Below, piece by piece: positions 38,577 through 38,655 of a DNA stretch of 64,000 nucleotides. The position numbers were made by a program, and so were the translations under genes. The DNA is from Escherichia coli. Its GTDB lineage: Bacteria > Pseudomonadota > Gammaproteobacteria > Enterobacterales > Enterobacteriaceae. The notes under the pieces were generated by a model, which was not told the DNA's origin, did not search any database, and saw only the letters and a program-made list of their open reading frames with translations. Location of the stretch: NCBI RefSeq assembly GCF_003334305.1, contig NZ_QOWS01000003.1; one strand, given 5' to 3'. Positions within the stretch are counted from its first letter, which is position 1, and the number at the start of each line of letters is the position of its first letter.

Positions 38577-38607
38577 TAATGGGTGCGGCTTGATGCCCTC
38601 ACCCCGG

Positions 38608-38628
38608 CCCTCTCCCACAGGGAGAGGG
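38608..38628. other. Perfect 9-bp stem hairpin in deoB-deoD spacer
   Basis: CCCTCTCCC-aca-GGGAGAGGG; no downstream T-run. Confidence 0.5.
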
Positions 38629-38655
38629 TGAAAACATGTTGATAAGGATAAAACA

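Follow-up and report, generated by a model that had tools for sequence, protein, structure and literature searches.

What is a perfect hairpin doing between deoB and deoD, two consecutive cistrons of the deoCABD operon of Escherichia coli? In the stretch of DNA analysed here (64,000 nt of E. coli contig NZ_QOWS01000003.1; henceforth the window), the deoB-deoD spacer comprises 79 nt (38577-38655) and contains a 9-bp inverted repeat that an initial annotation had tentatively assigned a role in mRNA processing or stability, or in the binding of a protein affecting deoD. The 281-nt stretch around the junction has matches in 5,426 of 5,426 complete E. coli genomes. The hairpin belongs to a dispersed repeat that has been described before and is no signal specific to deo. 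It supplies the two Watson-Crick arms of a single BoxC copy, and this copy very probably has no function dedicated to deo and is carried as a passenger at a permissive operon junction. The features on which this reading is based are collected in Table 1.

Table 1. Features at the deoB-deoD junction of the window and at the corresponding junction of other genera (L127, L131, L128 and L142 denote the loci fetched for those genera)
Feature	Position	Strand	Basis or remark
deoB (phosphopentomutase), upstream cistron	37353-38576	+	Name confirmed by RefSeq annotation of identical E. coli DNA
Left direct-repeat copy CATGTTCTGATAA (deoB end, including stop codon)	38567-38579	+	Weak
BoxC-allele-specific segment, 66 nt	38578-38643	+	Counterpart in K-12-type allele, 43 nt
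Second, imperfect transcript hairpin GGGTG.GGC / GCC..CACCC	38581-38604	+	Includes third block CCCTCACCC
Extended BoxC unit, TTTTCA + core + CATCAAGCCGCAC	~38583-38634 (~52 bp)	-	Alignment with K-12 copies hrpB-mrcB, argF-xynR and ilvC-ppiC
Three-block TMECO type B / HPG2 motif CCCTCTCCC TGT GGGAGAGGG CCG GGGTGAGGG C	38595-38628	-	Pattern match and 34/34 identity
Perfect (main) hairpin CCCTCTCCC-ACA-GGGAGAGGG	38608-38628		Two Watson-Crick blocks of the BoxC/TMECO core
Right direct-repeat copy CATGTTGATAA	38635-38645	+	Weak
deoD Shine-Dalgarno AAGGA	38644-38648	+	Common to both E. coli spacer alleles; unpaired with the hairpin in the predicted fold
deoD (purine-nucleoside phosphorylase), downstream cistron	38656-39375	+	RefSeq annotation of identical E. 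coli DNA
Salmonella spacer, two REP elements	L127 1391-1500		
Enterobacter spacer, inverted REP pair (BIME)	L131 1398-1500		
Citrobacter spacer, ERIC + REP	L128 1298-1500		
Cronobacter spacer, REP-like hairpin	L142 628-700		

The hairpin and its repeat family

The arms of the main hairpin (38608-38616 and 38620-38628) are separated by a loop of three nucleotides (38617-38619), and both the sequence and the gene coordinates bear out the annotated perfect 9-bp inverted repeat in this spacer. Its distance from deoB had been given as 30 bp and was slightly underestimated; the stem begins 31 nt past the TGA stop codon. RNA folding had been proposed as a check. In the predicted fold, the isolated hairpin reaches -19.6 kcal/mol (z = -3.7), its stem being lengthened to 10 pairs by G38607-U38629, and the main and second hairpins jointly (56 nt) reach -32.1 kcal/mol. 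On its 3' side, the stem is followed by TGAAAACATGTTG, with the tail TGAAAACATG and no T-run, and a scan of the window spacer flagged neither a terminator-like nor a promoter-like site. The initial annotation was thus correct in stating that a trailing U-tract is missing and that the hairpin is not a canonical intrinsic terminator.

The exact pattern of the main hairpin is expected 0.01 times by chance in the window. The main hairpin by itself is unremarkable, because perfect 9-bp hairpins are not rare there: those with loops of 3-8 nt amount to about 10 distinct hairpins (18 nested hits), compared with 1.7 in Markov-1 simulations. It is membership in a repeat family that makes the hairpin non-random. 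Elsewhere in the window, perfect hairpins of at least 9 bp followed by T-runs are found at 30372-30396, 56219-56244 and 58606-58631, and these look like ordinary intrinsic terminators.

Use of the 9-mer blocks as a full-text literature query led to the work of Holder et al. (2015; PMC4666352), in which the TMECO pattern is given as 5'-CCCTCNCCC N3-6 GGGNGAGGG N3 GGGNGAGGG-3' and is stated to equal the earlier BoxC (Bergler, 1992) and PIT (Hoyne and Maher, 2000) elements. The minus strand of the window at 38595-38628 reads CCCTCTCCCTGTGGGAGAGGGCCGGGGTGAGGGC, and the three-block pattern is matched at 38596-38628 of that strand with 0 mismatches (0.00 matches expected by chance). Over its full length, the window motif is identical at 34/34 positions to TMECO no. 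1 (hrpB-mrcB) and no. 4 (argF-xynR) of MG1655, both of type B with the second loop CCG. The window copy has this same second loop and contains, as its G-rich part, the HPG2 21-mer GGGAGAGGGCCGGGGTGAGGG (Kaplan et al., 2016; PMC5100583), which places it in type B. BoxC (Bergler, 1992; Bachellier, 1999), PIT (Hoyne and Maher, 2000, 2002), TMECO type B (PMC4666352) and HPG2 (PMC5100583) are one and the same element. The element is already known, as the repeat family has been described since 1992 and was catalogued across E. coli strains in 2015.

The repeat unit was delimited by fetching and aligning eight MG1655 loci from the table of Holder et al. (PMC4666352). The type B copies at hrpB-mrcB and ilvC-ppiC are flanked by TTTTCT before the core and by CATCAGCGCGCAC after it, and the window copy by TTTTCA and CATCAAGCCGCAC, such that the family-specific flanks TTTTCN and CATCARSCGCAC are kept. 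A T-rich tract preceding the C block was also remarked on by Kaplan et al. (PMC5100583). The resulting unit of ~52 bp agrees with the 50-56 bp given for BoxC. According to the reference list of Holder et al. (their reference 46; PMC4666352), BoxC was first described in the fabI/envM paper (Bergler, 1992), and the copy upstream of fabI/envM carries the same three blocks as the window copy. In an Rfam scan, no family exceeded its threshold; the best score, 18.6 bits against a gathering threshold of 55.5, belonged to an unrelated miRNA model.

The window copy therefore shares with BoxC the same three 9-nt blocks in the same order, the loops TGT and CCG, and the matching flanks, as well as an intergenic location, many copies per genome and a strain-variable presence. 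No difference was found within the element. What differs is the locus, at which K-12 has no copy: Table 1 of Holder et al. lists none near deoD in MG1655 (PMC4666352), and the DH5a sequence likewise lacks the element at deoB-deoD. In addition, the window copy is solitary, unlike the inverted pairs formed by type A and type B copies.

Dispersal and the two spacer alleles of E. coli

With a 60-nt query of the element, 23,842 places were located across 4,468 genomes; a single E. coli genome had 6 such places at the median and no more than 12. This search for the hairpin elsewhere in the genome, another check proposed at the outset, resolves the case. For BoxC/TMECO, 23 copies were reported in MG1655 and 63 loci across 56 strains, with no orientation or gene-class bias and no consistent distance to ORFs (Holder et al., 2015; PMC4666352). 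The window copy lies between deoB and deoD, outside both genes, as expected of a dispersed, multicopy and strictly intergenic repeat.

Copies of the hairpin are also abundant in the myxobacterial MAG 'Archangium sp. new MAG-75' (JAEUJS01; L008-L126), with at least 131 among the matches listed. At least 105 of the copies, again among the matches listed, share the three-block layout of E. coli BoxC in the form CTCCCTCACCC-nn-CCCTCTCCC-cga-GGGAGAGGG, and some copies form close inverted pairs. By a crude test, 46% of the listed copies lie inside long high-GC3 stop-to-stop ORFs, compared with 73% for random positions. For Myxococcus xanthus, only 1 copy was reported (Holder et al., 2015; PMC4666352). 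In two Archangium contigs (L008 13843-13954 and L054 11417-11553), the same sequence of more than 110 nt begins just past the three-block motif and continues to the contig end; this points to a multicopy element, perhaps an IS, abutting or targeting the motif.

Within E. coli, the deoB-deoD spacer exists in two alleles. Counting was based on junction-specific 48-mers; gapped alignments that run through the other allele inflate the count for the window allele (3,245). The BoxC allele is present in 2,486 of 5,426 complete genomes (~46%) and the K-12-type allele in 2,934 (54%), including K-12, O157:H7 and ST131-like strains. Between them, the two alleles cover 5,420 genomes, which leaves six of the 5,426 unaccounted for. 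The K-12-type spacer measures 56 nt and contains an unrelated 8-bp hairpin, GGGCGGAG-cgttga-CTCCGCCT, followed by TTGTTAT (DH5a, L001 404-432), which was flagged as terminator-like by the scan and has a predicted energy of -14.7 kcal/mol. This terminator-like hairpin sits within the deoCABD operon.

The alleles share TTCTGAT at the left and AAGGATAAAACAATG at the right. Derivation of one allele from the other was considered and rejected, as the inner segments of 66 nt and 43 nt align no better than shuffled sequence. The locus is also SNP-dense: 3 sites vary within the 66 nt of the BoxC segment, and 5 within the 56 nt of the K-12-type spacer. The K-12-type allele comprises two subtypes, found in 1,694 and 1,240 genomes, one of which occurs in K-12 and O157:H7 and the other in ST131-like strains. 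At its left junction, the BoxC allele hardly varies (2,476 genomes at >=99% identity). Its main loop, at 38617, is either ACA, as in the window, or TCA, as in O104:H4 and Shigella dysenteriae; further variants change the second loop from CGG to CGA (plus strand) or replace T by A in the right flank, and both 9-nt stems are intact in all. In one assembly labelled as E. coli (GCA_046452215.1), deoB is uncalled and the BoxC allele is interrupted by several single-base indels, which looks like the result of uncorrected long-read errors.

Possible traces of insertion were also considered. On either side of the BoxC insert lies one copy of a short direct repeat, CATGTTCTGATAA / CATGTTGATAA, with p of about 0.04 against shuffles, and a comparable flanking repeat was found in none of four K-12 BoxC copies. 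With so marginal a p value and four K-12 copies lacking the repeat, the reading as a target-site duplication was rejected. Metagenome contigs were scanned for a deoB-deoD spacer that is short or empty (1-31 nt separating TGA from GGATAAAAC), and none turned up; the notion that the repeat entered an empty site and duplicated its target is thus unsupported.

The same junction in other genera

Loci encoding DeoD orthologues were fetched for Salmonella, Citrobacter, Enterobacter, Cronobacter and Yersinia, and BoxC was absent from the deoB-deoD spacer of all those examined. Conservation in related species had been named as a test of a local function, and the idea of a locus-specific element is weakened because BoxC is not conserved there. 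The spacer ranges from 60 to about 205 nt in these genera, while the deoA-deoB spacer is constant at 51-53 nt in the window and in the other genera examined. Other repeats take the place of BoxC in four of the genera (Table 1), and the Yersinia spacer holds only weak, AT-rich sequence. In each of the Enterobacteriaceae spacers examined, a stable stem-loop closely follows deoB. The junction is a recurrent landing place for structured palindromic repeats. As a side observation, two thymidine phosphorylases of Cronobacter (440 aa) appear among the members of the 90%-identity DeoB protein cluster, which probably reflects an artefact of database clustering.

These assignments were scored with the REP consensus (GCCGGATG...CTTATCCGGCCTAC) and with ERIC primer sequences. 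On the window spacer, the REP consensus scores 12 in local alignment, as opposed to 17-20 on the Salmonella, Citrobacter and Enterobacter spacers, and the window spacer accordingly does not qualify as REP. The ERIC primers score 6-8 on the window spacer and 16 in Citrobacter, and spacers other than those bearing the respective repeat score 4-12.

REP/BIME elements nevertheless resemble BoxC in several respects. Both are short, GC-rich, palindromic intergenic repeats; REP/BIME are often co-transcribed at operon junctions, and in Salmonella, Enterobacter and Citrobacter they are found between deoB and deoD itself. They are a plausible analogue for an effect of BoxC on mRNA stability. The REP sequence, however, is unrelated to that of BoxC and lacks a third block, and BoxC is not known to have a RAYT-type mobilising enzyme. 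The ERIC/IRU element is likewise a dispersed enterobacterial intergenic repeat and lies in the same spacer in Citrobacter, but it measures about 126 bp and is unrelated to the window repeat.

Possible effects of the BoxC copy on deo expression

The BoxC copy would most likely be co-transcribed inside the deoCABD mRNA. The deo template strand is the G-rich one, and the mRNA would carry the C-rich strand, which therefore could not form a purine triplex or G-quadruplex. The transcript may instead fold into the stable 10-bp hairpin and a weaker hairpin upstream, both of which are predicted to leave the deoD Shine-Dalgarno sequence unsequestered. The BoxC copy should not terminate transcription, because it has no U-tract. 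According to the summary given by Holder et al. (PMC4666352), Hoyne and Maher (2002) found PIT elements to have neither promoter nor terminator activity. Literature searches for a published terminator or processing site at deoB-deoD returned nothing relevant. The copy is most likely a passenger that this permissive operon junction tolerates. On the RNA, an effect would probably be generic, at most a modest, REP-like block to 3'-to-5' exonucleases, and any effect on the DNA may be limited to an equally generic, locally raised sequence instability.

Selection for a hairpin at this junction is the alternative to mere tolerance, and it is possible because every Enterobacteriaceae spacer examined has a stem-loop after deoB. 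In its most explicit form, the stem-loop would be an exapted mRNA stabiliser or decoupler that, in the manner of an intercistronic REP element, blocks PNPase and RNase II, protects the deoCAB message after cleavage within deoD and sets the deoB:deoD ratio. The junction would then be selected for any stable stem-loop, and lineages would have captured unrelated repeats: BoxC or a private terminator-like hairpin in E. coli, REP/BIME in Salmonella and Enterobacter, and ERIC + REP in Citrobacter, with different deoB:deoD ratios for the two E. coli alleles. We consider this scenario unlikely, although several observations speak for it. The GC-rich 10-bp stem lies 31 nt past the deoB stop with a predicted -19.6 kcal/mol, the K-12-type allele has a different hairpin at the same position, and strong stem-loop repeats recur at that position in Salmonella, Enterobacter, Citrobacter and Cronobacter. 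The intact stems of the BoxC-allele variants, among which the loop varies, likewise argue against mere tolerance and are compatible with structural constraint. Newbury, Higgins and co-workers reportedly established in 1987 that REP elements stabilise upstream mRNA. On the other hand, the Yersinia spacer is weak and AT-rich, and occupancy alone is no proof of selection, given that any promoter-less spacer accumulates palindromic repeats. The BoxC family, moreover, shows neither an orientation or gene-class bias nor a consistent distance to ORFs (PMC4666352). The annotated mRNA processing or stability element dedicated to deo finds no support as a locus-specific function in a dispersed repeat that is absent from the spacer in 54% of complete E. 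coli genomes.

A role at the DNA level is possible but rather doubtful. Here, an intrastrand purine triplex or G-quadruplex on the minus (template) strand would stall polymerases and turn the junction into a hot spot of small rearrangements, such that the repeat would bring about instability and not regulation. An oligonucleotide identical to the element folds into a stable triplex in vitro, and inter-strain variability is higher at TMECO loci than in control spacers (Holder et al., 2015; PMC4666352); for HPG2 oligonucleotides, signatures of a switch between G-quadruplex and hairpin were reported (Kaplan et al., 2016; PMC5100583). However, a stable triplex was supported neither by DMS footprinting in vivo nor by CD/NMR of the duplex (PMC4666352), and insertion and loss of repeats alone could explain the variability nearby. 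Holder et al. tie the TMECO family to local genomic instability (PMC4666352). The dimorphism and SNP density of the deoB-deoD locus fit this picture without proving a mechanism, but only two alleles in 5,420 of 5,426 genomes speak against continuous scrambling.

Two more specific readings carry far less weight. A binding site through which a regulatory or nucleoid protein controls deoD would be suggested by the perfect dyad symmetry and by the exact conservation of the 9-mers across distant bacteria. The same sequence, however, stands at about 20-30 unrelated loci without shared gene function, and the spacer of 54% of strains, K-12 among them, lacks it; the annotated protein-binding site is thus unsupported as a locus-specific function, and we regard it as very unlikely. 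A transcription attenuator, factor-independent or factor-assisted, that lowers read-through into deoD is extremely unlikely. Like an intrinsic terminator, the window hairpin is a GC-rich stem-loop that follows a stop codon directly, and the alternative allele is terminator-like, its 8-bp stem and TTGTTAT at the same site fitting the intrinsic terminator pattern. The tail TGAAAACATG of the window hairpin, in contrast, has no U-tract and was left unflagged by the scan, which sets it apart from that class, and PIT/BoxC was inactive as a terminator in reporter tests, according to the summary in Holder et al. (PMC4666352). Strong termination, in addition, would silence deoD, because the spacer has no promoter-like site for this gene.

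Reading the hairpin as a passenger copy of BoxC removes one candidate regulatory element, which matters little in itself. For work on the deo operon, K-12 transcript maps are not transferable to BoxC-allele strains at deoB-deoD, and K-12 Term-seq data cannot address this BoxC copy, because K-12 lacks the element at the locus. Across the Enterobacteriaceae, four different palindromic repeat families have gathered at the deoB-deoD junction. Within E. coli, the junction offers a clean natural dimorphism between a hairpin without a U-tract and a terminator-like hairpin, which could be used to test the effects of BoxC at the RNA level.
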